From contig JBKQPR010000214.1 of the NCBI GenBank assembly GCA_052144935.1, positions 5,731-69,730 on the forward strand: 64,000 nucleotides of DNA, read 5' to 3'. The DNA is from Bryobacteraceae bacterium (lineage in GTDB: Bacteria > Acidobacteriota > Terriglobia > Bryobacterales > Bryobacteraceae). Within the stretch, counting starts at the first letter, position 1. Each line of letters starts with the position of its first letter. Positions 2,048 through 39,595 of the stretch are shown piece after piece. A model generated the notes under the pieces. It saw nothing but the letters and a program-made list of their open reading frames with translations, did not search any database and had not been told where the DNA came from. A program made the translations under genes and the position numbers.

Positions 2048-2057
2048 ACAAAACCTC

Positions 2058-3791: not shown

Positions 3792-3797
3792 GCCACC

Positions 3798-4165: not shown

Positions 4166-4195
4166 CTGCTGCCCCACGCGTTATTGTGAGGAGAG

Positions 4196-11468: not shown

Positions 11469-11491
11469 TTCCATCGTCATTGGAGACGCCC

Positions 11492-13447: not shown

Positions 13448-13584
13448 GTTCCAAGCGCCCGGCAGCCAGCCTGGCCGCCGGCCGCGAAGGCCGGGCGCCG
13501 TTCGATACGTCCACCACCAGCGCGTCCGCCGCGGCGCGGGAGCAGAGGCGGGCCCCTCAACTCCGCAGGTGTAGAATAAGTCAC

Positions 13585-13884
13585 ATGGATGAAACGCCAG
13601 TTACGCGCGCCGAAGCTCTCGGGCTGTTCGAGGCCATGAAGCAGGAACTGTTGAGCGGGGTTCAGGAACTCGTTCGTACCGCCCAAACCGAGATCCTGCG
13701 GACCTTCCTGCAATTCCATGAAGGCAGCCACGTGCGCATCAGGGCGATCGAAGTCAAATTCTCCGCCAGCGATGCGGCCGTCAATGAGCGTTTGTCGATC
13801 CTGGAGCGCCGCCTGGCCGAAATCGAAAAGCGCCTGATGCTGGAGCTCCCCGGTATCATGGATCCAAAAACGCCGCTGCAATGA
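13585..13884 (+). CDS. Hypothetical small coiled-coil protein
   Basis: The internal ATG at 13585 of ORF 12895..13884 gives 99 aa with heptad-like segments (NERLSILERRLAEIEKRL). There is no clear SD and no recognisable family. Confidence 0.35.
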   Translation: MDETPVTRAEALGLFEAMKQELLSGVQELVRTAQTEILRTFLQFHEGSHVRIRAIEVKFSASDAAVNERLSILERRLAEIEKRLMLELPGIMDPKTPLQ

Positions 13885-14265
13885 GTTCCCGCGAAGGCGA
13901 GCCTCGCATCTCACGGTCGTGGCTCGGCACGGAGCCGCGAGCGTTAGTTAGGTTAGCGAGCTGTTTCCCGGCATTAGCGAATCTGGCGTTCGGGAACACC
14001 CGCCCGCCGCAATTCCTGAGATGATCGGGAAGTGGACGGGCAGCGCCGAGGTGGGCAATCGCCCGGCACCGCAGCCGCAACGAATCGCGCGGCCGGCCCT
14101 ACTCCTCTTGCCCCCTTTTGGGGTGCTTAACCGTCTCCGGAACTTCGCCGTTCCGCGGCGCCAACCGCTCCCGGCCGGGTGCCCTCCGGTCCCGGCTCCG
14201 TTAAAGTCGTGCTGATCCGGCGCGCGTTACAGAGCCGGGCCCAGAGGGCGCGAAGCCACAACGTC

Positions 14266-14505
14266 TCACCCCTGAGCCGGAGATAGGCCCTGCGTGCGCG
14301 TCGTAATGACAACCGTGCCACTGGCGCTAAGGCTGGCCTGTTCAATATGAGGAAAGAGGGAAAGCCATTCTTCCGGCGTCAAAGGCTCCGTATGTTGATC
14401 CGAAGCGACAATCGTCTGTTTTTGAGGTTCCAGGGCCGCTTCGCGGGTTACCCCAGCAAGCAAAGCAACAACAGCACTTTCAGCAACTAGCCCTCTAAAT
14501 TTCAT
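14266..14505 (-). CDS. Hypothetical small protein with signal-peptide-like N-terminus
   Basis: 79 aa, MKFRGLVAESAVVALLAGV..., with a good SD (GGGAGG) upstream. Codon usage is AT-richer than neighbouring genes. No family recognised. Confidence 0.4.
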   Translation of the reverse strand: MKFRGLVAESAVVALLAGVTREAALEPQKQTIVASDQHTEPLTPEEWLSLFPHIEQASLSASGTVVITTRTQGLSPAQG

Positions 14506-14592
14506 CGATCCTCCCGATGGACTCCATTATCGGTCAAACGACCACCGAAGCGGAAGACAGGACGAAGCTGGATATGTAGCGAGTGGGAAACC

Positions 14593-15015
14593 TCACCCCT
14601 CCCAGGGATTGAGAACCGGTACGCCCGCCTTGTCGTAGTCGCTTCGATCCCTGGTCACCACCGTCAGGCCGTGGTGAAGAGCGGTCGCGGCGATGATCAG
14701 ATCAGGTTGGGAGTAGGTGTGTCCGGTTTTCCGGCCTTCTTCCAGCAGAACTCTCCACCTGAACATGATGTCCTCCGTAACCGGCAATACGCGCTGATCG
14801 AACATGGGACGGATCGTATGCGTAAGCCAGTGATCCAATTCCCCGTGGCGGGCGCTCCCCACGGTCAACAGGCCGATACCGAAGCGAAGCTCGGCCAGCG
14901 TGACGACGCTGACGTAAAGCTCGTCAAGGGGGTAACCGGCGGTGAACGCCAGCACCTTCGGCTCCGGCTTTAGCCGGCGTATTTCCGAAAGAATGTTCGT
15001 ATCCAGAAGCCACAT
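14593..15015 (-). CDS. vapC: PIN-domain toxin VapC/FitB-like
   Basis: MWLLDTNILSEI...TLAELRFG...IIAATALHHGLTVVTRDRSDY carries the conserved acidic PIN residues. The start overlaps the antitoxin stop. Confidence 0.85.
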   Translation of the reverse strand: MWLLDTNILSEIRRLKPEPKVLAFTAGYPLDELYVSVVTLAELRFGIGLLTVGSARHGELDHWLTHTIRPMFDQRVLPVTEDIMFRWRVLLEEGRKTGHTYSQPDLIIAATALHHGLTVVTRDRSDYDKAGVPVLNPWEG

Positions 15016-15275
15016 CAGAGCACAACGTCGCGCACCGGTAAAGGATAGCGAGCCGGCTCAATCTCCAGTTCCCGATCAGGCGAAGCCTGTAGGGCCGCAA
15101 TGAGGTCGGCTCCCGTGCGTTTATCGCGTGGCTTTCCAGGGGGTTCTTGGACCGTCGGCGAAGCCTTCAACGCCTGCATAAGAACGTCTTCGACGTTGTG
15201 GAACCCGCCGCTTTTCATGCGCTGGAGGATCAGGGCCTCAAGTTCGGGTCTGTGAATCTCAATGGTCATGGGCAA
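15015..15275 (-). CDS. VapB/FitA-like antitoxin
   Basis: 86-aa ORF immediately upstream of, and overlapping, the PIN toxin. C-terminal tail ...YPLPVRDVVL. Confidence 0.7.
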   Translation of the reverse strand: MPMTIEIHRPELEALILQRMKSGGFHNVEDVLMQALKASPTVQEPPGKPRDKRTGADLIAALQASPDRELEIEPARYPLPVRDVVL

Positions 15276-15523
15276 GACCTCCTTTCATGGTAGCCTTTTG
15301 GCACAGCAGGCGCTGCGTCACGCGCCGGAAAGATCGCCGCCCGGAAAAGGGAGCGTAGCCGTACGTGATGCCGCGATTGTGAAACATCAGACCTGAAACA
15401 TTCAAGGCCGCTGTTTACGGGCCTTCCCCCGCGTGTTTCAAGTGCTACCCATTCTGAAACCGAGGTCAAACCTACCCATTTCGGTTGAAAAAAGTCGACG
15501 TGTGAAAGCGGCGCAGGCCGCTA

Positions 15524-15872
15524 TCACTTCAACAAAGCGTCGACCCCGCTGTTTTAGCTTGGGGAAATCATCCCTGACGGTGGTCCACACTATTCCCAAA
15601 TCGACGGAGAATTACTCATGGATCGCTATGTTGCGCATCCCGCGCATTTGCGCCCATGGAATCTCTGGATGCTGTTTGATGAAGTCCGGGGCTGCTGGTG
15701 ATGTTGTTCACGGCCTCGCCGATGAACTCGATGTTCCGAACAACGGCATCCTGAACCCGCGGGTTCGTTTGAAAGGCTTCGAGATCCGGTACAGGCCGAA
15801 GTAGCCTGTCACTCGGTCAATCGCTTCGGCAATGTGTTCCAAATAGTCTTCGACACTCTCCGGATATTTCAT
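15524..15872 (-). pseudogene. HEPN (DUF86) toxin of a HEPN-MNT pair, decayed
   Basis: The minus-strand ATG at 15872 overlaps the MNT stop (ATGA). The DUF86-like sequence is spread over three frames: MKYPESVEDYLEHIAEAIDRV.. / ..DLEAFQTNPRVQDAVVRNIEFIGEAVNNI.. / ..FIKQHPEIPWAQMRGMRNIAIHE*FSVDLGIVWTTV.. / ..VDALLK*. There is an in-frame TAA where the conserved Tyr after the R-x4-H motif is expected. No intact ORF appears in the track. Confidence 0.75.
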
Positions 15873-16159
15873 AGGGGCCGCGGCTGTCCCAGCACCTCGT
15901 CGCGGAACTTCGGCGGCAAGCTGTTCGGAGTTAAAAACGACACCGGCACGCCAGGCAATTTCTCGACGTCGCTCTTCAAACCGGCAATCGTAAGCAGGCT
16001 GGTGGATTGTCCAGGTTCAACGAGCAGGTCAAGATCGCTCTCATCCGTGTCCGTTCCGCTGAGGACTGACCCAAAGACGCGGGGGCGAGAGAGGCCGTAA
16101 CGGCTGACAAGCAGCCGCAATTCGCTGCCGTGGGCTGTGAGGGCTTCCGAGGGTTTCAT
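15869..16159 (-). CDS. MNT-type nucleotidyltransferase antitoxin
   Basis: VFGSVLSGTDTDESDLDLLVE is the GS-x10-DxD nucleotidyltransferase motif. Confidence 0.85.
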   Translation of the reverse strand: MKPSEALTAHGSELRLLVSRYGLSRPRVFGSVLSGTDTDESDLDLLVEPGQSTSLLTIAGLKSDVEKLPGVPVSFLTPNSLPPKFRDEVLGQPRPL

Positions 16160-16662
16160 GGCCGGTTCTCCGTTCTCCGCTTTTTCAGCGTAGCTTTTTT
16201 AGCACGGACCTGCGGCGGCGTCACGGGCGGAAAACGGCGCCGCTGGAAAACACGCAAGGGCGAAAGGGACCCTTTGCGAAACGGCGCTGTCATGTTTCAG
16301 CTCGCCAAGCACCGCCCAAATAGTTGAACTGGCGACGCCTTCCGGCCAATGCGGATCCGGGACCACAAATACGCTGGCTACGACGATTCGGACCAAGTCC
16401 TTCAAAGCCCGTCGGGCCGCGGAGACTTGAACCCCGCAGGGCCCGGGAAATCGGGTGCGCCGGCAAGCACCGGGCACGCCGCCGATCAACCCCCGGCGGC
16501 CAAAGTCCCACCCCGGTCCCGCCGTCGGAAAACCGGCCGAATCCGTTTAAGCGCTCCCCCCTCTTCGGCACGTTCTACCGCGTGTTCAGTTAATATTTAA
16601 GATGGCGGGGAACTACTTCAGCACGGCGGACGCCTGGCCGGGACCTCGCTCCGCGACTGTCG

Positions 16663-26873: not shown

Positions 26874-28436
26874 TCAGTGCAGCACCCGCTGGTACACTTC
26901 GTATTCGGCGTCCTGTTGAACCAACCGGTAGTCCCGCGCCAGCATGCCGTGAATGTACTGGTACGCATCGGGCTCGCTGTCTTTCAGCGCCGGAATCCAT
27001 TCCTGGTACCGGTTGCGATCCAGCACGATGAACGCCGCCTGGCGCCCGGTCCGATAGCCCAGCCGGTAATCGTCTACCACGGTTCCATCCCAGCCCAGCT
27101 CGAAGGCCAGCTCCGCGCTGCCAAACACGACATCGCCCGGATGAACCCTCGGCTTCAAGTAGCCGGTGGAGGCGAGGTAATCGTGGCGATACAAGTCCTG
27201 CCGGATATGCCACAAGGTGGTGCTGAGTTGCACGGCTACCAGTGCCGCTGCCATGCCCGCCAAGGCCCATCGCGGCACCTTCATTTCTTGGGCGCGCGCG
27301 TGCCAGCTCGTCCAAATCCACACCGCCAGCAGCACCGCCAGCGGCATGGAAAAGTGCGGCATGTAGAAACGCTGGGCGTCCGGGTCCACCAGCACGATGG
27401 TCGCCGAGCTGGCCAGCCACACCAGCAGCAGCGCCCGGTACCCCTTGTGGTTGCGAATCGCGCGGCTGGCGAGCGCCCCCGCCGCGCCCAGGGCATACAG
27501 CGCCAGCACCACAATCCGGACGTGCGCGAATCCGTGTGTGTCCGGCCCCAGCCCGTAGGTATATAAGAAGCGCTCCACGGTCTGTTTGCGGAGCCACAGC
27601 CAGGAACCCGTGGGCAACCGGTTGGCCGCGTTGCCGCTGAACTGCGCCCACCACAGCGCCGGATTCCTGGCGATATAGATTCCCCAGCCGGCCGCCGCCG
27701 CCAGATAGGGCGCCGCCGCCCACGCCACGTGGCGGAAGCGGATGCGCCGCCCGTCGAAGTACAGCATGAGGACCACCAGCGCGGCAAACCAGGCGAGCGC
27801 CAAAGGATGCGCCAGCGCGGCCGCCGCGATGGAGGCATGGCTGAGCGCGATCGCGGCCGTGAAATGGCGCTCCCGCAGGACCACGTACACGGCCAGCCCC
27901 GCCACGCCCAGCGCGGCGCACATGATGTCCATCCGGCCGGCTCCGGCGCCCCACAGAAATGCCGAGTCCACTGCCACGAAGGCCATGGCCAGCAGCGCCA
28001 CGCCCTCCTCTCCCGACAGTTTGCGGACCAGCGCCCACCACGCCACCAGCGCCACCAGCCCCCACAGCACCGAGTAGAGCCGCACCGTGAACAGCCCGAA
28101 CGGCATCACGTGAAACCACAGGAATTCCGAGAAGGGATACAGCGGCGTAATCCAATAGGTATACTGGCCGATGCCGGTCAAATTGCGGCCGTGCCAGGTG
28201 GCCGTCGCGTCCAGCACCGGCGTTCCCATCGTGCTCCAGCGCAGAAGATGCAGCGCCGGACCGGAAAACCAAGCCTCGTCGCACCAGGGCATCAGTGTCC
28301 GGGCGGTGGCCACCGCCAGCGCCAGGTACACCACCAGGATGCCCCAGAACATACGTGTCCCAGCGTAATGAGGGGGTGTTGGGTTTGTCAACTTGGGCAA
28401 AACCGGCGAAGAAAACGGAAAACACCGGGAGTCCAT
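26874..28436 (-). CDS. GT-C fold membrane glycosyltransferase (ArnT/PMT-like, GT39/GT83-like)
   Basis: Polytopic protein with the first-loop DE motif (LMPWCDEAWFSGP). An alternative start at 28352 (MFWGILVVYLALAV) is at least as plausible. ORF 26827..28425 on the same strand is an alternate-frame shadow. Confidence 0.7.
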   Translation of the reverse strand: MDSRCFPFSSPVLPKLTNPTPPHYAGTRMFWGILVVYLALAVATARTLMPWCDEAWFSGPALHLLRWSTMGTPVLDATATWHGRNLTGIGQYTYWITPLYPFSEFLWFHVMPFGLFTVRLYSVLWGLVALVAWWALVRKLSGEEGVALLAMAFVAVDSAFLWGAGAGRMDIMCAALGVAGLAVYVVLRERHFTAAIALSHASIAAAALAHPLALAWFAALVVLMLYFDGRRIRFRHVAWAAAPYLAAAAGWGIYIARNPALWWAQFSGNAANRLPTGSWLWLRKQTVERFLYTYGLGPDTHGFAHVRIVVLALYALGAAGALASRAIRNHKGYRALLLVWLASSATIVLVDPDAQRFYMPHFSMPLAVLLAVWIWTSWHARAQEMKVPRWALAGMAAALVAVQLSTTLWHIRQDLYRHDYLASTGYLKPRVHPGDVVFGSAELAFELGWDGTVVDDYRLGYRTGRQAAFIVLDRNRYQEWIPALKDSEPDAYQYIHGMLARDYRLVQQDAEYEVYQRVLH

Positions 28437-28894: not shown

Positions 28895-29335
28895 GTGCTA
28901 GTCGATACCAGCGTTCTTGCTCGCACCTTGCAGCCTCATCATTCGCTCTATGCCCTGACTGACCGGGCTATCGAGCGTCTTTTGGCGCAGGGCCGGGAAC
29001 TGCATATCGTTGCTCAAAACCTCATAGAGTTGTGGGTTGTGGCTACCCGGCCTCTGGAACAAAACGGCCTTGCCATGACGCCGGCCGCCGCCGCTCGGGA
29101 GCTGGCGCGCATCAAGAGCATGTTCGAATTCCTGCCGGAGACCCCCGCCATCTATCCGATATGGGAGGGCCTGGTCACCCAGCACAACGTATCCGGCAAG
29201 CCGGCGCACGATGCGCGCCTGGTGGCCGCCATGCAGGCGCATGGCCTCGCCAGCATTCTGACTTTCGATGCGGGCGGTTTTTCTCGCTATGCCGGCATCG
29301 AGGTCGTGCACCCCGCCGCCGTCGCCTCCTCATGA
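28895..29335 (+). CDS. vapC: PIN-domain toxin VapC
   Basis: GTG start; LVDTSVLART...NLIELWVVATRP...HDARLVAAMQAHGLASILTFDAGGF. Confidence 0.85.
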   Translation: MLVDTSVLARTLQPHHSLYALTDRAIERLLAQGRELHIVAQNLIELWVVATRPLEQNGLAMTPAAAARELARIKSMFEFLPETPAIYPIWEGLVTQHNVSGKPAHDARLVAAMQAHGLASILTFDAGGFSRYAGIEVVHPAAVASS

Positions 29336-29424
29336 GACATTAAGGCAAAGTAGCGTGGCGGTTTAAACCTGGAAATGTATTTTATCGTGCTTAAAAGCAA
29401 GCTCACAGGGGTACATGATCGTCA

Positions 29425-29453
29425 TTAGCAATAATTGCCAATCCTGGTAGAAT
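29425..29453 (+). promoter_or_regulatory. Candidate sigma70-type promoter/operator of the parD operon
   Basis: TTAGCA, 17 bp spacer, TAGAAT, ending 27 nt upstream of the parD ATG. The spacer contains the palindrome GCAATAATTGC. Confidence 0.4.
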
Positions 29454-29479
29454 GAGCCGTACTATTGGAGGATCGCCGT

Positions 29480-29782
29480 ATGCCGACCCGGAACGTCAAT
29501 CTGACCGAACACTTCGACCGCTTCATCGAGGCCGGCGTCACTTCTGGCCGCTTCAGCAACGCCAGCGAAGTGGTGCGGGAAGGCCTCCGGCTATTAGAGC
29601 AGCGCGAGCAGGAAGACAAGGCCAAACTTGAATGGCTCCGCGCCGCCGCTAAGGAAGGCTTCGATCAGCTCGACCGCGGCGAGGGCATCGAATTTGAATC
29701 GATGGACGACTTCGACGCCTATATCGACCGGATCGGAGAGGAAGCCTCCGCCGAGATAGCCGTCGAGCGCAAGCGTGGCTGA
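29480..29782 (+). CDS. parD: ParD-family (RHH) antitoxin
   Basis: The internal ATG at 29480 (SD GGAGG) gives MPTRNVNLTEHFDRFIEAGVTSGRFSNASEVVREGLRLLEQRE, a classic ParD4-type sequence. Confidence 0.85.
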   Translation: MPTRNVNLTEHFDRFIEAGVTSGRFSNASEVVREGLRLLEQREQEDKAKLEWLRAAAKEGFDQLDRGEGIEFESMDDFDAYIDRIGEEASAEIAVERKRG

Positions 29783-30150: not shown

Positions 30151-31278
30151 ATGCCCGAGCTCACCATCGTCGTCCCTACCCTGGAGGAACGCGAGAATCT
30201 TTCTCCCGTGATCGCGGCGCTCGAATCGGTTCTCGGCGGCATCGACTACGAGATCCTTTTCGTGGACGACGATTCTCCCGACGGCACCGCCGCGGCCGCC
30301 CGCGAGCTGGCCCAGCGCAATCCGCGCGTGCGCGTGCTGCAGCGTATCGGACGGCGCGGGCTGGCCTCCGCCGCCGTGGAAGGCATGCTCGCCAGCAGCG
30401 CCCCTTATCTGGCCGTGATGGACGCCGATCTGCAGCACGACGAGTCCATTCTGCCCGCCATGCTGGCCAAGCTGCGGCACTCCTCGCTCGACCTGGTAGT
30501 CGCCACCCGCGTCACGGAGGGTGGCATGGATGCCATGCCGGCCCATCGCCGCGCCCTCTCCGGGCTGGGTCGCCGTCTGAGCACGCTGATCTGTTCCACC
30601 GAACTGTCCGACCCCATGAGCGGCTACTTCGTGCTCACCCGGGCGTACCTCGATGAAGTGGCTCACTCGCTCAGCGGCACCGGCTATAAAATCCTGCTCG
30701 ATCTGGTAGTCTCGGCCCGCCGTCCGGTAAAACTGGCGGAAATCCCCTATCGCTTCCGGCCGCGCCTGCACGGCCGGAGCAAGCTCGATATCGTAGTGGC
30801 GGTCGAATATCTGGCGCTGGTGGCGGACAAGCTGGTGGGCGATTTCGTGCCTCCCAGCTACGTGATCTTCGGATTTGCCGGTTCGGTTGGTGTCCTGGCC
30901 CACCTGGCCGCCGTGCAACTGCTCCGCCTCATCCCCGGAATCACTTTGGAAAGGGCCCAGCTCATTTCCAGCGCCATCGTGATCGCCATCAATTTTCTGC
31001 TGAACAACCAGTTCACCTTCCGCTCCGCCCGGCTGCACGGGAAGCAGCTCGCGATCGGCATGCAGGTCTTTTATATGGCCTGCTCCATAGGCCTGTTCCT
31101 GAACCTGCGGGTGTTCGATACCCTCACTGGTCTCTCGGTGCCGTGGTATCTGGCGGCTGCGCTGGGCCTGGCGGTCGGATCGGTGTGGAATTACTGGATG
31201 AGCTCGATGTTCGTGTGGCAGGTGCGGCGGAGACGGCGGGGGCGCGAGCCGGGGCGCTTCCCGGGCCCCGCGGCATGA
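30151..31278 (+). CDS. GT2 polyprenyl-phosphate glycosyltransferase fused to a GtrA-like domain
   Basis: The internal ATG at 30151 gives MPELTIVVPTLEERENL...ILFVDDDSPDGT...VMDADLQHD. The C-terminal four-TM GtrA-like part is FGFAGSVGVLAHLAAV...INFLLNNQFTFRS. Confidence 0.85.
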   Translation: MPELTIVVPTLEERENLSPVIAALESVLGGIDYEILFVDDDSPDGTAAAARELAQRNPRVRVLQRIGRRGLASAAVEGMLASSAPYLAVMDADLQHDESILPAMLAKLRHSSLDLVVATRVTEGGMDAMPAHRRALSGLGRRLSTLICSTELSDPMSGYFVLTRAYLDEVAHSLSGTGYKILLDLVVSARRPVKLAEIPYRFRPRLHGRSKLDIVVAVEYLALVADKLVGDFVPPSYVIFGFAGSVGVLAHLAAVQLLRLIPGITLERAQLISSAIVIAINFLLNNQFTFRSARLHGKQLAIGMQVFYMACSIGLFLNLRVFDTLTGLSVPWYLAAALGLAVGSVWNYWMSSMFVWQVRRRRRGREPGRFPGPAA

Positions 31279-31578
31279 GTACTTCAGCCGCAAGATTCCG
31301 CGGGAGCGTACGGTTTGCCGCCAAGGCCGTTCCGGACCGGCAAGCGCACGTTTTCCGGCTTCAGCCAAGTTGACACAACGGCTGACTATGGCGACCTGGC
31401 CGCCCCTGCGACGGCCACGCTCCGGATTGGTGCGGGCCGATGCTCAGGCGGGGTGCATTTCGTCGACTGGTGGCGAATGTAGAATATGGCTGGGATGCCA
31501 TTGCGCCGGCCGTCGAGGATGCGGTCATGGCGCTCCCCGCGCTCACCCGATCGATGCAAGCAGCCGGCGGCGACGCCT

Positions 31579-31600
31579 CGCTAGCTTAGCTAAGCTAGCG
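31579..31600. repeat. Perfect 22-bp palindrome CGCTAGCTTAGCTAAGCTAGCG
   Basis: Read directly from the sequence. It overlaps the stop codon (31595-31597) of the minus-strand DltD-like gene. Confidence 0.9.
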
Positions 31601-32542
31601 CGGCGAACCAGGCACGCGCAGACGGCCTTGTGCGATCCAATCGTTAATCCGCGCGTTGATGTGCGAGACGATCACCGCGGCAGCGTTGGCAACAAAGTGA
31701 ACGCCGTCCCCGAAATTCTCTCTCGCGCCTCGAAAATCGGCGAACTCCGCCGAGGTAAAGTCAATCAGCAGGTCCTCGGGGCCTGCATTCGCCTCGATCA
31801 ACCGCGCGTAATCCCAGAATGCGGTCTGCTGCGCACGGAACAGATCCTCGGAAACCGGAGGCACAATAAATACGATCTGAACGTGATGGGCCCGCAACTC
31901 GGCGGCCAGGTCCCGAAAAACCGTAAGGGCGATGGGATCGACTTCAAATGCGGCCCCAGGACGAAACATCTGCCGCATGATCGGATTGAGCCGCGTGGGC
32001 GGGTGCAAGAAGTGCTCCGTCCCGTCGTAATCGACTACCTCTCTAGGACGGTGCAGCCGCTCTTGGAGCATGTCAGCGTAGGCTGCCAGAAGGGTCTGCG
32101 ACCCGAGAGCGGAGAAGCCCAGCGATGGCTGCAGGCTGACGGTCTGGAAATCGTGCGAATGCGTGCAATACGGATGCACGATCAGGGCCGCGACGGAGAT
32201 CCCCGGCCTGGAAAGCGCCGCATCCACCAGGGCTTTCCCCTCGACGATGTTGCCACCGTCGAGCGATTGGTTATAGACCCGCAGTTTCTCCACGCCGGCC
32301 ATGTTCCAATTGGCGGACAAAGACGAGCCGACCAGGATGGCATTGAAGTTGCCGGGCACATAGTGCTCGCTAAGCAGGTATTTGGCCACCCGCGGGTCGC
32401 CATAGGCTGGCAGCCGCCGCTCGCGAGTGTCGCGATATAGCCCGTAGGGATCGACCGCTATGTTGAAGCCCACGATGGGGCCTCCGCATGCAGCGATCAA
32501 GCCGAAGACCATGAGAAACCAGTTACGCGCTCGCATACTCAA
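31595..32542 (-). CDS. DltD/AlgX-like SGNH-type membrane-anchored protein (putative extracytoplasmic acyltransferase/esterase)
   Basis: N-terminal TM anchor (NWFLMVFGLIAACGG), a GSS serine motif (ILVGSSLS) and a C-terminal D-x-x-H (GDGVHF). The start overlaps the MBOAT stop. Confidence 0.6.
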   Translation of the reverse strand: MSMRARNWFLMVFGLIAACGGPIVGFNIAVDPYGLYRDTRERRLPAYGDPRVAKYLLSEHYVPGNFNAILVGSSLSANWNMAGVEKLRVYNQSLDGGNIVEGKALVDAALSRPGISVAALIVHPYCTHSHDFQTVSLQPSLGFSALGSQTLLAAYADMLQERLHRPREVVDYDGTEHFLHPPTRLNPIMRQMFRPGAAFEVDPIALTVFRDLAAELRAHHVQIVFIVPPVSEDLFRAQQTAFWDYARLIEANAGPEDLLIDFTSAEFADFRGARENFGDGVHFVANAAAVIVSHINARINDWIAQGRLRVPGSPR

Positions 32543-33954
32543 AAGACGAAGTACAAAAACTGCTTAGCCTCCACCGAGTTCATAAAGAAGAAGTCCACCA
32601 GGAGAAGCGCCGCGGCCCCAAGGGCAGTCAACGGGATCGGCCGGAATCTTTTCTCCAGATCCACGGAGCCTTTGAGACCGAAAGCCAAAGCGGTCCCGAA
32701 GGCCATGGGAAGCACCATCCGCAGCGGGTTCAGAGGTACCGCCACCCTCAGCTCGGCAAATCCCAAAATCCGCCCATGGGGGAACATCCGGCCAAACATG
32801 AGCATCGCCGCGGACACGTGCGGAGAGCGAAAGAGGACATAGGCGAGGTTCACGAAGACGAACGTCAGCAGCCACCCCAGCCAGTCCGGGAGCTTGCCGA
32901 GCTTCTTCCTCTTCCATATCTGGTTGACACTGAGACCCGCACCGTGGAAAAGTCCCCACAGGACAAAAGTCCAGGACGGACCGTGCCACAGGCCCGCGAT
33001 TCCCATAGCCAGCAGCGTGGCCAGTGCGCTGGTCCAAATAGTGGCCGTACCTATGGAGCGCAGCAGTGGTGTATAGAGGTAGTTGGTGATGAACTGCGAC
33101 AGCGAAATGTGCCACCTCTGCCAGAATTCACTAATGGATTTCGAACGGTACGGCACATTGAAATTCTGCGGAATCTCGATGCCCACCATGCGCGCCGCTC
33201 CGACCGCCATGTCCGAGTAGCCGCTGAAGTCGAAGTAGATCTGGAAAGCGTACGCCAGGGTTGCCACCCAGGCCTCCATCGTGGAGAGGCTCGCCGGCGA
33301 ACGGTAGCCGGCATCCGCAACGGCCGCGAAGGAGTCCGCGAACACCACCTTCTTGGCGAGACCGATGGCAAATAGATACAGACCGAAGCAAGCCGTTTGC
33401 ATGTTGCCGCCGCTCATCTTCCCTCCGCGAAACTGCGGCACGATGGCGCGGCTGCGGACCAGGGGGCCTGAAATCACATAGGGGAAGAACGAAACCAGGG
33501 CGGCGTGATCGAAGAGCGAATTGGGCCCGTTTAAGCCTTGATATGTGTCCACCAGAAACATCACCTGGGTGAGCGTAAAAAAGCTGATCCCGAGCGGGAA
33601 GTTCCAATCGGGCAGAACCAAGTGGGATCCAAGAGGCAGCGCCCCTAACAGGAAGCGGGCATATTTGAAACAGCACAGAAAGAGAATGTTGGCGGCAAGA
33701 GCCGCCCGCAGGAGGGCTTTTCGCCGGCCTCCCTCCGCGACGGCAGCCATCGCACGAGCGGCCGCCCAATTGAACACAATGGAGCCGAACAGTAACGGGA
33801 GGTTCGAAGGCTTGGCGAAACCGTAGAAGAATATCGAGGAGGCCAGCAGCCATACCTGCGCGAGCCGGGATCCCGCTCGTTGGGCCAAAATAGTGTGTAC
33901 GATCGCGACCGCCGGAAAGAAGGCCAGTACAAACGAAAATGAGTGGAACAGCAT
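32539..33954 (-). CDS. MBOAT-family membrane O-acyltransferase (DltB/AlgI-like)
   Basis: MLFHSFSFVLAFFP... is a typical AlgI/DltB N-terminus. The conserved His region is GLWHGPSWTFVLWGLFHG. Confidence 0.9.
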   Translation of the reverse strand: MLFHSFSFVLAFFPAVAIVHTILAQRAGSRLAQVWLLASSIFFYGFAKPSNLPLLFGSIVFNWAAARAMAAVAEGGRRKALLRAALAANILFLCCFKYARFLLGALPLGSHLVLPDWNFPLGISFFTLTQVMFLVDTYQGLNGPNSLFDHAALVSFFPYVISGPLVRSRAIVPQFRGGKMSGGNMQTACFGLYLFAIGLAKKVVFADSFAAVADAGYRSPASLSTMEAWVATLAYAFQIYFDFSGYSDMAVGAARMVGIEIPQNFNVPYRSKSISEFWQRWHISLSQFITNYLYTPLLRSIGTATIWTSALATLLAMGIAGLWHGPSWTFVLWGLFHGAGLSVNQIWKRKKLGKLPDWLGWLLTFVFVNLAYVLFRSPHVSAAMLMFGRMFPHGRILGFAELRVAVPLNPLRMVLPMAFGTALAFGLKGSVDLEKRFRPIPLTALGAAALLLVDFFFMNSVEAKQFLYFVF

Positions 33955-33978
33955 CGGTAGACCGCGCCCGCACCGATG

Positions 33979-34254
33979 TTAGCCGGATCCGGCCGCCGAT
34001 GGTCCGTTCCTCGATCGGAGCTTTTCGACGATCAGGTCCGCCATGTCGCCGACGTTTTTCAGGTCCTGCAACTCTCCGAGGGCGAACTTGATTTTGTACA
34101 GCGTCTCGACCGCGGTCACCAGGTTGATATGGGCCAGGGAATCCCAGCCATCGACGTCCGCAGCTTTGGTTTCTGGCGAAAGCCGAAGATCCGGGACGTC
34201 CAAGACATCGGCAAATACCGGCTGCAGGTCTGCAATGATATCGGCGTTGTTCAT
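33979..34254 (-). CDS. Acyl carrier protein (DltC-like position)
   Basis: 91 aa with DVDGWDSLAHINLVTAVE. The start overlaps the FkbH-like stop by 4 nt. Confidence 0.85.
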   Translation of the reverse strand: MNNADIIADLQPVFADVLDVPDLRLSPETKAADVDGWDSLAHINLVTAVETLYKIKFALGELQDLKNVGDMADLIVEKLRSRNGPSAAGSG

Positions 34255-36038
34255 AAACTGACCGTGGCTAATTTACTTGGCACGGCAATATGTTTGTTCT
34301 TTGGCGTATATCCGGCGATACGAAGGCCGTACACGGAACTGCTGCCATCCGCGCTGGAGGATTCCTGCACAAAGCCAAGGCGTTGGTAGTGGTCCTTTAC
34401 CATCGCATTCTTGGCGGTTTGGAAATAGTATCCGGCGATCTTGGCGACCCCGCGCTCGCGGGCGTGCTCAACCAGCGCATCCAGCATGGCGAGCTCGACG
34501 TCGCGTTTCAAAACCCGGCAACTCATCAACCAGGTATCCAGATGCAGGGTAGCGCCCTCGCACCGGCCGATCAGCAAGGAAATGAGGCCGTTGTCCCCGA
34601 ACGCGTCGGTGAGCCTGCCATAGAGTGGAATGTAGCCGGCGCTTTTCGAGATCTCTTCCACCTCGGCGTAAGTGTAACGCCGGGTCGTCAAATTGAATTG
34701 ATTGGTCTTATTGATCAGTTGCGTGATGCGGTCGAGATAGACTGGCTGAAAGAGGTCAATCTCGGCGCGCATCCGGAGCGAATCCAGATAAGCTCCATAG
34801 TCCGCGAACTTCGCCTCCAGCGTGGCGCGCTGAGCGTTAGCCGCATAGGCGTCGGCGCGTTCCAGATCCTCTTTCGACAGGTTCACGGCCTCGAAACAGC
34901 GAGTCGCCTGGAGAATCGAAGGGTATAATGCCACATCGCTACCCACATCCGGCGTCAAGACCATGGGGAGCTGCGACTGCACCAGGGCGCGCTCCGCCGG
35001 ATTGTCATCGATGAACACGAAGCTGTCGAGTCCGAGATTCAACTCCGTGGCGATCTCCTGGATATTCTGGGGTTTTGGCTCCCAGTTGGCTTTGAACGCG
35101 GAGAAGTGTTCGAGTTTGAGGACGCTGTCGGGATGGGCGAAGCCGGCGCGGGCAACCTCCAAATTGTTCTTCGAGCACACGGCCAGCAGAACGCCGCGGC
35201 CGCGCAACTCCAGGCAGTACTGCTGAAACGCGGTGTAGGCCTCCGCGAGAGCGGTTTCCTTTCCGATTTGGATCTTATCCGGCCCATCGTCGCCAATCAC
35301 CCCACCCCACAGGGTATTGTCGAGATCGAGCACCAGGCACTTCCTGGATTTGCCGAACATGGCCCCGATGATTGCGGCCATGGACTTGGCGATTGCGAAA
35401 CTTGCCTCCGGCGTGGTGGGGATTTTGTAGCTGTACCAGCGATCCCAATCGAACCACTGGCTATGACCCAGCGAGGCTGCGAGGCTGTTTAGATCCTGAA
35501 TCGAAAGTTTCCGGTTCTCAGCGGCGGCCTTGGAAAACGCCAGATTCAGCTCCCAAACGAGCCTCACGCGCCCTTCGCCGGCAACACAATCCGCGTTACC
35601 CAGAAGGCCAATGGGCGAGGTTTCGAAATTGTTCTGAACGATATGGCAGCCGATGACCGTGTGGATGGAGTTCCAAATCGCCTGGTACCGCGCCAACTCC
35701 GAGGCAACGGCATCCTGCAATTCCGCCGGGGCCGCACCCGTGGAAAGACACCGCCGGAGGTTCATCCAGTTGGTGTGCACGTAAACGATATCCGGCTTAA
35801 ACGCCTTAAGCTTTTCTGGTTCCAGTACGGCATCCTCGAAATGCCGGTTGTACTCGGACTGATAGAACACCGGCCGGAAGTGCTCCGCCAGCAGCAGCAC
35901 TTCGAGGAATTCCACGACCTCGTTGGCGGTTACCCCTGCCAGCACCGCGACTCTGAGATCCCTCAGCCCCGGATTTTCCAGAAACTGCCGGCGCAGACGT
36001 TTGCGCTGGCGCACCAATGCCTCGAGCGGCAAGTCCAT
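34251..36038 (-). CDS. FkbH-like HAD-IIIC family protein with C-terminal GNAT-like domain
   Basis: The internal ATG at 36038 gives MDLPLEALV... HAD motifs: VLDLDNTLWGGVIGDDG, AVCSKNN, FIDDNPAE. The C-terminus GYYFQTAKNAMVKDHYQRLGF is GNAT-like. Confidence 0.8.
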   Translation of the reverse strand: MDLPLEALVRQRKRLRRQFLENPGLRDLRVAVLAGVTANEVVEFLEVLLLAEHFRPVFYQSEYNRHFEDAVLEPEKLKAFKPDIVYVHTNWMNLRRCLSTGAAPAELQDAVASELARYQAIWNSIHTVIGCHIVQNNFETSPIGLLGNADCVAGEGRVRLVWELNLAFSKAAAENRKLSIQDLNSLAASLGHSQWFDWDRWYSYKIPTTPEASFAIAKSMAAIIGAMFGKSRKCLVLDLDNTLWGGVIGDDGPDKIQIGKETALAEAYTAFQQYCLELRGRGVLLAVCSKNNLEVARAGFAHPDSVLKLEHFSAFKANWEPKPQNIQEIATELNLGLDSFVFIDDNPAERALVQSQLPMVLTPDVGSDVALYPSILQATRCFEAVNLSKEDLERADAYAANAQRATLEAKFADYGAYLDSLRMRAEIDLFQPVYLDRITQLINKTNQFNLTTRRYTYAEVEEISKSAGYIPLYGRLTDAFGDNGLISLLIGRCEGATLHLDTWLMSCRVLKRDVELAMLDALVEHARERGVAKIAGYYFQTAKNAMVKDHYQRLGFVQESSSADGSSSVYGLRIAGYTPKNKHIAVPSKLATVSL

Positions 36039-36282
36039 CAGCGTGCGCAGAAGCACAAATCTGAGTGCAACACCTCTTACAAAAGTCTCAGAAAATTTGG
36101 CGGCCGCCTGCCGTTGGGAACAACGGAACGGATGAAAGAGGCCGGGATCGCCGGACGACGATCGACCAAGCCGCGCGACCGATGCCAATCGAAAGCACGC
36201 TCCGACCGATCCCTGCCACGTACTCCGGCACCCATCCACCACCAACTGTTACGATATTCCGGAAGGGTCGAATCACCAGATT

Positions 36283-37281
36283 ATGAGCCGGCGCAGGGCG
36301 CTCATTTCGGGCATCACGGGACAGGACGGGTCGTATCTCGCGGAACTCCTTCTGGAAAAGGATTACGACGTACACGGCCTGGTGCGCCGGGTGGCCCTCG
36401 AGGATCCCAGCCACCGGCTGCGGCGGATTGCCGCCATCCGCGACCGCATCACGCTCCATGCCGGATCGCTCGAAAGCTTTCCCAGCCTTTACCAGATCGT
36501 CCGGCGTGTCGAGCCCGACGAATGCTACCATCTGGCCGCCCAGAGTTTCGTCAGCTACTCCTTCGACGACGAGTTCTCCACCCTCAACACCAACATCAAC
36601 GGCACGCACTACATGCTGGCTGCCATCCATGAGGCCGCCCCGCACTGCCGCTTCTACTTCGCCGGCTCCAGCGAGATGTTCGGCAAGGTGGAAGAAACGC
36701 CGCAGAACGAGCGCACCCGCTTCCACCCGCGCTCGGCCTACGGAATCAGCAAGGTGGCCGGCTTCGATCTTACCCGCAACTACCGCGAAGCCTACGGACT
36801 CCACGCTTCCATCGGGATTCTCTTCAACCACGAGTCGGAGCGCCGCGGCTTCGAGTTCGTAACCCGCAAGATCACGGCCGGCGTGGCCGCCATCGCCTCG
36901 GGCGCCAGGAGCGAGCTGCGCCTGGGCAACCTGGAGGCCCGCCGCGACTGGGGCTACGCTCCCGAATACGTCGCGGCCATGTGGCGTATGCTCCAGCAGG
37001 ACACGCCGGACGATTACGTGGTCTCGACCGGCGAAAGTCACTCGGTCCGCGAGTTCGCGGAACTGGCCTTCTCCCTGGCCGGCCTGGACTACCGCGACCA
37101 CGTGACCGGCGATCCTCTGCTGTACCGCCCCGCCGAAGTCGATCTGCTCATCGGCGACCCCTCCAAGGCGCGCTCCCGGCTGGGTTGGGAACCCCGGACG
37201 CGCTTCGAAGAACTGGTCCGCCGGATGGTGACAGCCGATCTCGAAACCGCCGGCCCGGCACTGAAAGTCACCCAGGTCTGA
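36283..37281 (+). CDS. gmd: GDP-mannose 4,6-dehydratase
   Basis: ALISGITGQDGSYLAELLLEKDYDVHG...YHLAAQSFV...SAYGISKVAG...ILFNHESERRG, a textbook Gmd sequence. Confidence 0.9.
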   Translation: MSRRRALISGITGQDGSYLAELLLEKDYDVHGLVRRVALEDPSHRLRRIAAIRDRITLHAGSLESFPSLYQIVRRVEPDECYHLAAQSFVSYSFDDEFSTLNTNINGTHYMLAAIHEAAPHCRFYFAGSSEMFGKVEETPQNERTRFHPRSAYGISKVAGFDLTRNYREAYGLHASIGILFNHESERRGFEFVTRKITAGVAAIASGARSELRLGNLEARRDWGYAPEYVAAMWRMLQQDTPDDYVVSTGESHSVREFAELAFSLAGLDYRDHVTGDPLLYRPAEVDLLIGDPSKARSRLGWEPRTRFEELVRRMVTADLETAGPALKVTQV

Positions 37282-37288
37282 GATCTCC

Positions 37289-37531
37289 ATGAACGCAGCT
37301 ATTTACGAAAAGGTACGCAGCATCGCCGCGGACATGCTGCAAGTGAAGATCGCAACCCTCAAGGCGGATTCCTCCCCCGAAACTGTGGACACCTGGGACT
37401 CCGTCCACCATCTCAACCTGGTTCTGGCGCTGGAGGAGTCCTTCGGCTTCCAGTTCTCCCCCGAAGAGATGGACCAGATGAAAACCATCGGCCAGATCGC
37501 CGGGATGGTGGAAACCAAGACCGGCTCCTGA
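37289..37531 (+). CDS. Acyl carrier protein
   Basis: 80 aa with TVDTWDSVHHLNLVLALE. The stop overlaps the next start. Confidence 0.8.
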   Translation: MNAAIYEKVRSIAADMLQVKIATLKADSSPETVDTWDSVHHLNLVLALEESFGFQFSPEEMDQMKTIGQIAGMVETKTGS

Positions 37532-38598
37532 TGGCCATCGAGATCGTTCCGTACCTGCCCGCCCATGGGGCCGCGGTGCGGCGCTTCCACGAGCGCCTGG
37601 CCGCCGTGGGCGCCGACCCGGACATGCGGTTTCCCGAACCCTCCGACTCCGGTTGGATGCCAGGCACGCAGCTCTGGCTTGCCGTGGAGGGCGACGAGGT
37701 ACGCGGCGGCTATATCCTGCGGCGCCAGACTTTTTCCTTCGGCGGCGAGACTCACCAGGTAGCCCACTACCGGCTGCCGCTTTCCGAAGGCTTGGTGAAT
37801 CGCGCCTATGCTCTGCTGGCCGTCCGCCTGGTTCGCGACGCGTTGAATCGCGAAGCCGAGCTGTACGCTCTCGGCATGGGCGGATGGGAGAAGCCGCTGC
37901 CCGAAATGCTGAAGCGCCTGAACTGGCGTATGGCGGCGGTTCCGTTCTACTTCAAGGCGCCGCATCCCTACCGCTTCCTGCGTCAGATCCGCGCCCTGCG
38001 ATCGTCCGCTTTCGGGCGCCTGGCTTGCGATGCGGCCGCCTTCAGCGGAGCCGGTTGGCTGGCGCTGTGGCTTGCCGGGGTTGCCCGCCGCACTAGCGGG
38101 CCAGCGCCGCTCGAAGCTCCGGCATCCTTCGCCGGCTGGGCCGATGCCGTATGGGAACGCTGCCGCACTCGCTACGCCATGGCCGCGGTGCGCGACGCCG
38201 CCACCCTCGACCGGCTCTATCCGCCGTCCGATCCGCGCTTCCTGCGCGTCCGCGCCGCCGGGGGCTGGGCCGTGCTTCTGGACACCGCCATGCACGGCCA
38301 CAAGCAGTTCGGCGATCTCCGGGTGGGCACGATTGTGGATTCGCTCGCGCCGCCCGAAGACGCCGCCGTGGTGGTCCTCGCCGCGGCCCGGACCCTGGAA
38401 GAGCGCGGCGTGGATCTGATCGTTTCCAACCAACTACACCACGCCTGGTCGAGCGCCTTGCCCAAAGCCGGCTTTCGCCAGGCCCCCACGAATTTTCTGA
38501 TCGCGATCTCTCCGGTCCTGGCCGCGCGGATCGAAGGCCGCGCGGACCTAGAGATCCATATGAACCGCGGCGATGGGGACGGGCCGATTCATCTGTAG
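37531..38598 (+). CDS. Two-domain GNAT/FemAB-like acyltransferase (putative)
   Basis: 355 aa, translationally coupled to the ACP. It has the same size and overall layout as the protein at 55755..56819. The family call is tentative. Confidence 0.5.
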   Translation: MAIEIVPYLPAHGAAVRRFHERLAAVGADPDMRFPEPSDSGWMPGTQLWLAVEGDEVRGGYILRRQTFSFGGETHQVAHYRLPLSEGLVNRAYALLAVRLVRDALNREAELYALGMGGWEKPLPEMLKRLNWRMAAVPFYFKAPHPYRFLRQIRALRSSAFGRLACDAAAFSGAGWLALWLAGVARRTSGPAPLEAPASFAGWADAVWERCRTRYAMAAVRDAATLDRLYPPSDPRFLRVRAAGGWAVLLDTAMHGHKQFGDLRVGTIVDSLAPPEDAAVVVLAAARTLEERGVDLIVSNQLHHAWSSALPKAGFRQAPTNFLIAISPVLAARIEGRADLEIHMNRGDGDGPIHL

Positions 38599-38637: not shown

Positions 38638-39192
38638 GTGGGCGGTCTGACTCCGGTATTCTGGCAAAACACGCTGCCGCTGATGGTCACGATTCTGGTC
38701 GCAGTGGGCGCGGCGACGCTTGCCGGATGGATCTCTAACGCGAACTTGTCCAAACGGATTGCTGACACCAACGCGAGCCTGTCGAAACGCTTGGACGACA
38801 CCAACGCGAGCCTGTCGAAGCGGATGGAGGACACCAACGCGAGCCTGTCGAGGCGGATGGAGGACACCAACGCGAGCCTGTCGGAACGGATGAAGGACAC
38901 CAACGCGAGCCTGTCGGAACGGATGAACGATCTCAACGCGAGCCTGTCGAAACGGATGGACGATCTCAACGCGAGCCTGTCGGAACGGATGGACGATCTA
39001 AACACCAACCTGTCGAAACGGATGGACGATCTAAACACCAATCTGTCTAGGCGGATCGAGGAAAGCCACGCGAACCTGTCCGGCCGGCTGGACGACATCA
39101 TCGCCCGCCTGGGGCGCATCGAGATCAAGCTGGAAGGCCATGAGGACCGCATCACCAGGCTCGAAGAGCGCACCTCCCCGCTCCGCCGTTAG
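38638..39192 (+). CDS. Membrane-anchored protein made of eleven 11-residue repeats plus a C-terminal coiled-coil-like tail
   Basis: GTG start, one N-terminal TM helix (LPLMVTILVAVGAATLAGW), repeats N-A-S-L-S-K/E-R-M-D/E-D-T/L, and the tail IARLGRIEIKLEGHEDRITRLEERT. Confidence 0.65.
   Translation: MGGLTPVFWQNTLPLMVTILVAVGAATLAGWISNANLSKRIADTNASLSKRLDDTNASLSKRMEDTNASLSRRMEDTNASLSERMKDTNASLSERMNDLNASLSKRMDDLNASLSERMDDLNTNLSKRMDDLNTNLSRRIEESHANLSGRLDDIIARLGRIEIKLEGHEDRITRLEERTSPLRR
38737..39099 (+). repeat. 33-bp tandem repeat, 11 units (in frame)
   Basis: Units start at 38737 and recur every 33 bp (for example AACGCGAGCCTGTCGAAACGCTTGGACGACACC). The terminal units are more diverged. Confidence 0.9.
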
Positions 39193-39211: not shown

Positions 39212-39595
39212 TCATGAACCCGGCGGCTTGTAGGCGACGCCCAGATCTTTCGCTATGACGGCGAAATGTTGGTCGGCCGTCCACAACTGCAAGCGCTCCG
39301 CCAGGGCGGAGGCGAGCCGGTGAACGTCGATCCAGCCGACGCCGCGCCCATGCAGGTTCCGATGGCGAACGAACGCGACAACCTCGTGGTGGGGAACCAT
39401 GCTCGCCTGATGCATTCGCTCATAGGTGGACAGGAACTTACTGCGGCCTCCACGATCGCCGATGAGGAGTTCGCCGTAGACCAATTCATGTCCGGCCACA
39501 TTGTCGAGATTCAGGAGTCTCTCAAGTTCGTTTGCGTATGGATCCTGGTCGAAGAAATACCGAATCCACACGGACGTATCGATCAGAATCATCAA
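39212..39595 (-). CDS. vapC: PIN-domain toxin VapC
   Basis: MILIDTSVWIRYF...VYGELLIG...WIDVHRLASALAERLQLWTADQHF. Confidence 0.85.
   Translation of the reverse strand: MMILIDTSVWIRYFFDQDPYANELERLLNLDNVAGHELVYGELLIGDRGGRSKFLSTYERMHQASMVPHHEVVAFVRHRNLHGRGVGWIDVHRLASALAERLQLWTADQHFAVIAKDLGVAYKPPGS

Follow-up and report, generated by a model that had tools for sequence, protein, structure and literature searches.

The window analysed here is a stretch of 64,000 nucleotides from a Bryobacteraceae bacterium (contig JBKQPR010000214.1, positions 5,731 to 69,730). Its minus strand carries a cassette of four genes, which code, in the order of transcription, for an FkbH-like enzyme, an acyl carrier protein (ACP), a membrane acyltransferase of the MBOAT family and a membrane-anchored protein of the SGNH fold (Table 1). 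Calling of open reading frames (ORFs) placed the genes at 31595-32542, 32539-33954, 33979-34254 and 34251-36245, confirming the four packed minus-strand genes that a preliminary description of this DNA had reported at 31595-36038. The genes are genuine, with hundreds to thousands of homologues, and chance ORFs are ruled out. The motifs read earlier from the translations were all confirmed codon by codon: Asp238-Leu-Asp240-Asn-Thr242 (DLDNT), Ser289-Lys-Asn291 (SKN) and Asp344-Asp-Asn346 (DDN) in the FkbH-like enzyme, Trp37-Asp-Ser39-Leu (WDSL) in the ACP, the conserved histidine of the MBOAT, and Gly72-Ser-Ser74 (GSS) and Asp279-Gly-Val-His282 (DGVH) in the fourth protein.

The longest ORF of the FkbH-like gene starts with a TTG at 36245, but homologues of 595-600 residues align from the ATG at 36038, favouring the latter. 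The stop codon of this gene overlaps the start of the ACP gene by 4 nucleotides (ATGA), and 24 nucleotides separate the ACP and MBOAT genes, both as first described. The third junction had been given as another 4-nucleotide overlap, which holds if the fourth gene starts at the TTG at 32542. Because the alignment with 47 homologues of the fourth protein begins at its third codon, the true start is probably the ATG at 32534-32536, giving a spacer of 2 nucleotides after the MBOAT stop codon. With either start, the four genes are one tightly packed, translationally coupled unit. Promoter and terminator scans of 31200-36400 were uninformative, returning no more sites than in shuffled sequence, so the operon boundaries are set by gene spacing. 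No gene for an AMP-binding enzyme is present in the operon, and the junctions (-4, 24 and -4 nucleotides) leave no space for a gene of a microprotein such as DltX.

Table 1. Features of the four-gene cassette in the window, with the position of the corresponding loci in S. meliloti.
Feature	Position	Strand	Evidence
FkbH-domain/HAD-IIIC enzyme, 595 residues	34251..36038	-	TIGR01686, TIGR01681, PDB 3slr, ZmaN alignment
HAD motif I, D238-L-D240-N-T242	35313..35327	-	D238, D240 and T242 invariant in alignment A2
Cys507 (S-C-R-V), predicted glyceryl-S-enzyme site	34518..34520	-	sole invariant Cys in alignment A2, shared with ZmaN
Acyl carrier protein, 91 residues	33979..34254	-	PF00550, 28.5 bits (cut-off 20.8)
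ACP phosphopantetheine site Ser39 (W-D-S-L)	34138-34140	-	codons checked, W37-D-S39-L
MBOAT, 471 residues, catalytic-type His282 (33109-33111) and His324	32539..33954	-	PF03062, 87 bits (cut-off 27)
Hexapeptide F466-L-Y468-F-V-F471 (FxYxxF); Tyr468 at 32551-32553	32542..32559	-	MBOAT end ...KQFLYFVF-stop
SGNH-fold protein, 315 residues from TTG	31595..32542	-	transmembrane helix at residues 8-26, invariant catalytic residues, Foldseek
SGNH protein sites	Ser74 32321-32323; Asn98 32249-32251; D279-x-x-H282 31697-31708	-	alignment of 47 homologues
S. meliloti loci L019/L021/L022	NC_020560.1, NC_003078.1 ~631 kb; CP050512.1 815-5849		

The FkbH-like enzyme scores well above the NCBIfam cut-offs for the FkbH domain (TIGR01686, 290.8 bits against 146.65) and for the HAD-IIIC phosphatases (TIGR01681, 69.8 bits against 35.75). 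It consists of an N-terminal FkbH_N-like domain, a HAD phosphatase core and a C-terminal transferase domain. Residues 21-388 match BF1531 of Bacteroides fragilis, a structural genomics entry (PDB 3slr, E 3e-49), and over the HAD and transferase domains the protein is 31% identical to ZmaN, a glyceryl loader whose sequence was picked by its position within the zwittermicin gene cluster of a B. thuringiensis plasmid. In alignment A2, which comprises the FkbH-like protein, ZmaN and six other homologues, close and distant, the HAD residues Asp238, Asp240 and Thr242, Ser289-Lys290-Asn291 and Asp344-Asp345 are all invariant. In enzymes of the OzmB type, phosphoglyceryl- and glyceryl-S-enzyme intermediates precede the transfer to the ACP (PMC9057759), and Cys507 is the predicted acylated cysteine of the cassette enzyme, which we predict to be a glyceryl-ACP synthase. 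Since the HAD motifs and Cys507 are shared without exception in A2, the objection that the protein might lack the catalytic residues needed for its proposed role falls away.

The ACP is recognized by PF00550; NCBIfam ACP models also match it, with scores below their cut-offs. The MBOAT is likewise recognized by its Pfam family, and among solved structures it matches DltB only (8jem and 6bug, E 1e-29), with the sequence around His282, WHISLS, aligned to WHMSLS of DltB. By its sequence it is best described as a relative of DltB, not as a DltB. It continues for about 95 residues past residue 375 of 471, where the match to the DltB model ends, and this extension contains a strong transmembrane segment at residues 440-458 and terminates in the FxYxxF hexapeptide. 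This acyl-shuttle motif resides on the microprotein DltX in the Dlt system and is fused C-terminally, on two extra transmembrane helices, to MBOATs of the PatA/AlgI/WssH type (PMC12148441). Its tyrosine has been shown by experiment, for PatA and DltX, to be the acyl-carrying residue that feeds the serine of the SGNH partner (PMC12148441). Among loci fetched via the cassette FkbH or SGNH gene, 43 of 49 MBOATs end in F-x-Y-x-x-[F/Y/I].

The fourth protein had been called DltD-like. At the level of the fold this is borne out: its AlphaFold model (pLDDT 89.6) has DltD as the best Foldseek match (6pfx, E 4.5e-5, TM-score 0.45), followed by GDSL/SGNH enzymes, TesA and PatB (to E 1e-3, TM-scores around 0.4-0.45), the protein has an N-terminal transmembrane helix, and Ser74, Asp279 and His282 are invariant in 47 homologues. 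In the same alignment, Gly96 is nearly invariant and Asn98 is at least 90% conserved. As a family assignment the name does not hold. No Pfam or NCBIfam model, those of DltD included, matches at an E-value of 0.01 or better; TIGR01686, PF03062 and PF00550 recognized their proteins above cut-off while the DltD models did not. Searched against the PDB, a profile of the family gives weak matches, at E 1e-3 for PatB and at E 1e-2 to 0.2 for DltD. The model and these matches indicate a membrane-anchored SGNH-fold protein of the MBOAT-partner kind rather than a DltD family member. The family, made up of 'hypothetical proteins' of about 310 residues, gave 121 matches in a word-indexed search, and an exhaustive search of 1.84 billion representatives returned 571 clusters at E<=1e-3, of which 206 at E<=1e-30.

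Co-conservation of the four genes was examined from both ends of the cassette. A genome scan with the SGNH family yielded 15 loci, mostly from metagenome-assembled genomes of Acidobacteriota (Bryobacterales, Terriglobales and Ca. Solibacter), with one each from Kofleriaceae, Victivallales and Acetobacteraceae; four more came from other look-ups. Where enough upstream DNA was available for the locus to be informative, 14 of 15 loci, drawn from other genomes or from metagenomes, shared the order FkbH-ACP-(slot)-MBOAT-SGNH (L001, L003, L006-L009, L012-L015, L024, L029, L107 and L108), the slot being the gap between the ACP and MBOAT genes. The second scan was anchored on full-length FkbH-like genes, 39-62% identical to that of the cassette, in 80 metagenome loci from peat and soil, human gut, rumen and marine sources. 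An adjacent ACP gene was found in 48 of 72 of these loci; a same-strand MBOAT gene lay within 4 kb in 24 of 49, and an MBOAT gene occurred anywhere in the locus in 31 of 49.

Downstream of the more distant MBOATs, the partner varies: it is of the AlgX/DHHW type in L044 and GDSL-like in L071, both by Pfam, and elsewhere an unclassified protein with a transmembrane anchor, while some distant FkbH-anchored loci have a glycosyltransferase gene after the MBOAT in place of an SGNH-like partner. Homology to the SGNH family is not claimed for these distant partners; for the 362-residue partner in L016, an hhalign comparison with the A1 profile was not significant (probability 1.2%).

A version of the cassette is present on pSymB of S. 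meliloti, with the order MBOAT (ending in FLYQGF), a 409-residue SGNH-like protein (with GGST and DPGH motifs), ACP and HAD-IIIC/FkbH. The 409-residue partner is mis-annotated as a 'TonB-dependent receptor' in one record. Comparison of strains 1021 and 2011 revealed a deletion of one nucleotide in the FkbH-like gene of 1021, by which the gene is broken in two near residue 324. Provided that the old sequence is correct here, these two common laboratory strains may be a natural mutant and wild-type pair.

The slot between the ACP and MBOAT genes varies among the close relatives. It is empty (24-25 nucleotides) in the window and in L012, L013, L015 and L024. In L001, L002, L007, L008, L009, L014, L029 and L107, and partially in L011, it is occupied by a 139-residue MaoC-like dehydratase and an SDR-family reductase of about 245 residues. 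In L108, an intact MaoC gene is followed by an SDR remnant of 32 codons (8406-8501), seemingly a slot caught in the course of decay. The slot of L003 holds a 152-residue Glyoxalase_4/VOC protein (7763-8221), from the family that includes methylmalonyl-CoA epimerase, and the gap in L006 is similar in size. In the biosynthesis of the FR901464 and lankacidin starter units, a dehydratase-ketoreductase pair turns glyceryl-S-ACP via pyruvoyl-S-ACP into lactyl-S-ACP, according to He et al. 2014 as cited in PMC4765723. Enzymes acting on three-carbon thioesters, placed exactly between carrier and MBOAT, would be hard to explain unless the cargo of the ACP were what the MBOAT exports. The variation in the slot supports a 2,3-dihydroxypropanoyl thioester as this cargo, and the earlier suggestion of a glyceryl or other hydroxyacyl group is strengthened by it: the MaoC and SDR or VOC proteins of the relatives fit glyceryl here and lactyl or another three-carbon acyl group there. 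Because the slot of the window is empty, an unmodified glyceryl ester is predicted for it.

Taken together, these observations make it fairly probable that the operon specifies a carrier-protein-dependent MBOAT/SGNH pathway, which would attach a three-carbon hydroxyacyl group, by an ester linkage, to an extracytoplasmic glycan or other envelope polymer. In such a pathway, the FkbH-like enzyme would convert 1,3-bisphosphoglycerate to a (phospho)glyceryl thioester on Cys507, its HAD site (Asp238/Asp240) would strip off the phosphate, and the glyceryl group would pass to the phosphopantetheine on Ser39 of the ACP. Glyceryl-ACP would dock at the cytoplasmic face of the MBOAT, where His282 would catalyse acyl transfer to Tyr468 of the MBOAT's own FLYFVF motif, at the outer face. 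From Tyr468, the acyl group would move to Ser74 of the membrane-anchored SGNH protein and from there to a hydroxyl of the polymer. We infer the acyl group, its hand-off from ACP to MBOAT and the acceptor; the acyl group in the window is most probably glyceryl (2,3-dihydroxypropanoyl).

By its gene content, the window is a region of glycan biosynthesis. It encodes a GT2-GtrA fusion, a GDP-mannose 4,6-dehydratase, a DegT aminotransferase, a GFO/IDH/MocA oxidoreductase and glycosyltransferases of families GT1 and GT2; further genes code for an FkbM methyltransferase, a polysaccharide deacetylase and sulfatase-family proteins. In L016, the FkbH, ACP, MBOAT and partner genes are located between a Wzy-like gene and genes for a flippase and glycosyltransferases.

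Several observations weigh against the proposed pathway. The MBOAT scores 184 bits with the DltB equivalog TIGR04091, far below the cut-off of 375, and it has the shuttle motif fused in the manner of PatA/AlgI enzymes, which use acetyl-CoA, so that its carrier dependence is deduced from gene context; the co-conserved ACP gene 24 nucleotides upstream argues against a CoA donor. The exception among the 15 informative loci, L004 from Ca. Solibacter (1-4217), has the MBOAT and SGNH genes and no FkbH or ACP gene within 4.2 kb. Conversely, FkbH-ACP pairs exist without an MBOAT and with other acyltransferases, of the WcbI family in L020 and of a tandem-GNAT type in L018, and a GNAT homologue with its own ACP is encoded only 1.5 kb from the cassette. 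No substrate is known for any member of the subfamily of FkbH proteins of about 600 residues, with the N-terminal domain, from polysaccharide loci, and its sole structural relative, 3slr, is annotated 'uncharacterized'. Finally, the neighbourhoods of L107 and L108 are without obvious glycan genes, for which reason the acceptor polymer is a putative one.

Some of these loci have further features. Upstream of the two genes in L004 is an unclassified 602-residue ORF, and on the opposite strand a 396-residue protein has a weak match to the class-II aminoacyl-tRNA synthetase core (E 1.4e-4); very tentatively, it might be a synthetase-like amino-acid:carrier-protein ligase. In L107, an acidobacterial contig, a second set of genes, Dlt-like in make-up, lies beside a six-gene FkbH cassette at 11979-16477; it encodes an AMP-binding enzyme (578 residues) and a 77-residue carrier, with an MBOAT (477 residues) and a 359-residue protein without Pfam match on the other strand. 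L006 has a similar additional MBOAT and ACP. One genome may thus hold several carrier-dependent MBOAT systems with different loaders. L020 is on a Niveispirillum plasmid (NZ_CP025615.1, 7836-12316) and encodes a HAD-IIIC/FkbH protein, an ACP, a putative acetyltransferase of the WcbI family and a long SDR with a MaoC-resembling N-terminus; here, the partner of the FkbH-ACP module is an acyltransferase of the cytoplasm in place of the MBOAT/SGNH pair.

The acceptor could be another envelope molecule, such as peptidoglycan, the lipopolysaccharide core or lipid A, a periplasmic glucan, a lipid or a protein, instead of a secreted or surface polysaccharide. The lack of obvious glycan-assembly genes around L107 and L108 would fit such an acceptor, and the known substrates of MBOAT/SGNH pairs include peptidoglycan and teichoic acids besides exopolysaccharides (PMC12148441). 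We nevertheless regard it as rather unlikely, as the window, L016 and L018 all have the cassette or its FkbH-ACP part within glycosyltransferase loci, accompanied in the latter two by Wzy, flippase or Wzc/Wza-type proteins, and the pSymB cassette of S. meliloti adjoins a GT2 gene and a gene annotated 'capsular polysaccharide biosynthesis protein'.

A further alternative is that the operon combines two independent functions, the FkbH-ACP pair feeding a cytoplasmic acyltransferase that N-acylates a nucleotide amino sugar, and the MBOAT and SGNH proteins performing O-acetylation from acetyl-CoA like PatAB or AlgIJ. A candidate for the cytoplasmic enzyme is encoded on the plus strand at 37289-38598, where the gene of a second ACP (80 residues, PF00550) is followed without a gap by that of a 355-residue protein (37531-38598). 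The latter has no Pfam, NCBIfam or PDB sequence match and belongs to a family of more than 1100 'hypothetical' members; its AlphaFold model (pLDDT 89) shows a tandem-GNAT fold similar to that of N-myristoyltransferase. As a GDP-mannose dehydratase gene lies immediately upstream, the protein may be an N-acyltransferase that works in the cytoplasm, takes its acyl group from an ACP and modifies an amino sugar, which the dehydratase and the DegT aminotransferase of the window could yield. Its homologue in L018 (41.5% identical) is encoded directly upstream of FkbH-ACP-MaoC with no MBOAT nearby, the FkbH-ACP pair of L020 is followed by the WcbI-family acetyltransferase, and the fused shuttle motif of the MBOAT is typical of acetyl-CoA users. 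In the cassette, however, no further acyltransferase is encoded and the ACP-MBOAT junction is just 24 nucleotides long. The gene order is kept in 14 of the 15 SGNH-anchored loci, in varied and unrelated contexts where the GNAT protein is absent; the tailoring genes sit precisely between ACP and MBOAT, and the GNAT protein is accompanied by an ACP of its own, which shares only 33% identity with that of the cassette. On account of this synteny, the slot position and the separate ACP, we judge a division into two functions to be unlikely.

It is more doubtful still that the pathway operates as proposed on an acyl group other than glyceryl, through loading of another phosphorylated or activated acid or through conversion by a trans-acting enzyme such as the MaoC-like protein at 12986-13447: the lack of a known substrate in the FkbH subfamily leaves room for it, but the HAD motifs and the cysteine of the SCRV motif are invariant with ZmaN, and the hydratase/dehydratase, the SDR and the VOC protein resembling an alpha-carbon epimerase in the slots of relatives suit a 2,3-dihydroxyacyl thioester. 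Relocation of the slot genes within the window was also considered and rejected; tblastn found no homologue of the slot SDR (E 1e-2) and only a MaoC-like gene, 31% identical to the slot MaoC, about 20 kb away by another ACP gene, taken to be a separate system. This third carrier set (11402-13914) comprises an LbH hexapeptide acyltransferase (11402-12313, plus strand) with weak LpxA/LpxD/NeuD-like matches, an ACP-like ORF of 81 residues (12310-12555, minus strand; 40% identical to the cassette ACP), small ORFs without assignment and the MaoC-like dehydratase (plus strand), bringing the ACPs encoded in the window to three.

For the proposed esterification pathway, the preliminary description had drawn the comparison with Dlt, as a Dlt-style pathway with a loader other than DltA. 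The FkbH loader and the ACP bear out one part of this; the system is not simply Dlt, with the shuttle motif fused as in PatA/AlgI and DltX absent. Shared with Dlt (DltA-DltC-DltB-DltX-DltD) are, in the pathway as proposed, cytoplasmic activation on a small phosphopantetheinyl carrier, an MBOAT related in sequence to DltB, the relay through the FxYxxF tyrosine, a membrane-anchored SGNH transferase for which DltD is the top structural match, and an extracytoplasmic polymer as acceptor. In contrast to Dlt, the loader is an FkbH/HAD protein instead of the adenylating DltA, so that a hydroxyacyl group derived from glycolysis, instead of an amino acid, is the predicted cargo. Moreover, the MBOAT itself bears the shuttle motif, on the extension of about 95 residues, the MBOAT and SGNH proteins fall below the DltB and DltD family thresholds, and the hosts are mostly diderm Acidobacteriota and Proteobacteria, without teichoic acids.

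The O-acetylation systems PatA/PatB, AlgI/AlgJ/AlgX and WssH/WssI, acting on peptidoglycan, alginate and cellulose, resemble the cassette in having an MBOAT with fused FxYxxF motif and a separately encoded membrane-anchored or periplasmic SGNH partner in Gram-negative hosts. In sequence as well as in fold, PatB ranks with the top matches of the fourth protein, and the distant locus L044 has a partner of the AlgX/DHHW type. These systems take acetyl-CoA as donor and have neither carrier nor loader (PMC12148441), whereas the cassette has coupled upstream ACP and FkbH genes and, optionally, thioester tailoring. The cassette is therefore a hybrid of two MBOAT/SGNH designs that fits neither, a fused motif being combined with a dedicated carrier and loader.

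With the FkbH/OzmB/ZmaN pathways of polyketide and nonribosomal peptide biosynthesis (methoxymalonyl- and hydroxymalonyl-ACP, tetronate and lactyl starters), the cassette shares the FkbH domain with its DxDxT, SKN and DD motifs, the SCRV cysteine and a dedicated adjacent ACP; the dehydratase and reductase of its relatives recall the glyceryl-to-lactyl route of FR901464 and lankacidin. Polyketide synthase and nonribosomal peptide synthetase genes and oxidation or methylation genes of the FkbG/I/J/K type are missing from it, and the FkbH protein has an additional N-terminal domain of about 230 residues, in common with Bacteroides BF1531. A membrane acyltransferase pair follows the ACP, and the unit is therefore predicted to end as a polymer ester, not as a polyketide building block. 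A parallel in setting is C. jejuni cj1302, an FkbH-domain gene in a flagellin glycosylation locus (PMC7099621), in an organism whose surface glycans bear acyl groups derived from glyceric acid (PMC5378307). In that case, an amide bond, presumably formed in the cytoplasm, joins the glyceroyl group to a nonulosonic acid, an MBOAT/SGNH export arm is not described, and the function of cj1302 is putative.

In line with the earlier statement that no characterised pathway of this composition was known, literature searches found none. Searches on FkbH or HAD-IIIC together with MBOAT, ACP, polysaccharide or S. meliloti, which excluded the 2023 Dlt mechanism paper (PMC10664464), returned no description of the cassette, and the single paper found with both FkbH and MBOAT concerns unrelated roles in aeruginosin biosynthesis. 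The component families and the relay from MBOAT via tyrosine to SGNH protein are known; it is the combination that appears to be new, that is, an FkbH loader and ACP predicted to feed a fused-motif MBOAT/SGNH pair, with a variable slot for thioester tailoring and a wide spread in diderms and gut metagenomes. A mechanistic paper of 2025 states that MBOAT/SGNH pathways other than Dlt have no carrier protein (PMC12148441), a generalisation which this combination would contradict.

MBOAT/SGNH pairs are the chief bacterial route for acylating polymers beyond the cytoplasm, and they affect antimicrobial resistance, immune evasion, biofilm mechanics and phage recognition. By uniting two designs with a glycolysis-derived three-carbon donor, the cassette implies a repertoire of extracytoplasmic acyl groups wider than acetyl and D-alanyl. 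It also offers candidate genes for glycan substituents of the glycerate and lactate type: glycerate occurs on bacterial glycans in ester and in amide linkage. Gellan carries an L-glycerate ester at O-2 of glucose (PMC9104527), and Pse7Gra is a further example, the genes for which were reported as unidentified as late as 2017 (PMC5378307). The tailoring slot suggests a route for engineering the acyl decorations of polysaccharides, which set the gel properties of gellan, and the presence of the cassette on pSymB of S. meliloti, a genetically tractable model, makes the idea directly testable.

A broader proposal, to which we would give a little less than even weight, is that the cassette represents a modular system of loader, carrier, tailoring slot, MBOAT and SGNH protein spread across several phyla, with hosts in, for example, the Acidobacteriota, Myxococcota, Alphaproteobacteria (including S. 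meliloti pSymB) and gut bacteria. It would write small hydroxyacyl esters, glyceryl, lactyl and possibly pyruvoyl or epimerised glyceryl, on surface glycans, and FkbH would be one of several interchangeable loaders beside DltA-like and perhaps aminoacyl-tRNA synthetase-like ones. If this is true, carrier dependence is not peculiar to the D-alanylation of teichoic acids, and the system would account for the genes so far missing behind the glycerate and lactate groups of bacterial polysaccharides.

Elsewhere in the window, an ORF of 520 residues (26874-28436, minus strand) has a strong coding signal (GC content at third codon positions 0.84) and no Pfam or NCBIfam match. At 38638-39192 on the plus strand, a 184-residue protein is encoded with an N-terminal transmembrane segment and about a dozen tandem repeats of 11 residues (consensus roughly D-T-N-A-S-L-S-K/E-R-M-D/E), for which the only matches are weak and apolipoprotein-like. 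The window contains no tRNA genes. Amid the glycan genes, at 7089-8561, 28895-29782 and 39212-39595, there are a gene resembling that of replication initiator protein A (PF10134), a PIN toxin gene, a ParD antitoxin gene and a further PIN gene; these scattered replication and toxin genes suggest a plasmid, a chromid or a mobile island as the setting.

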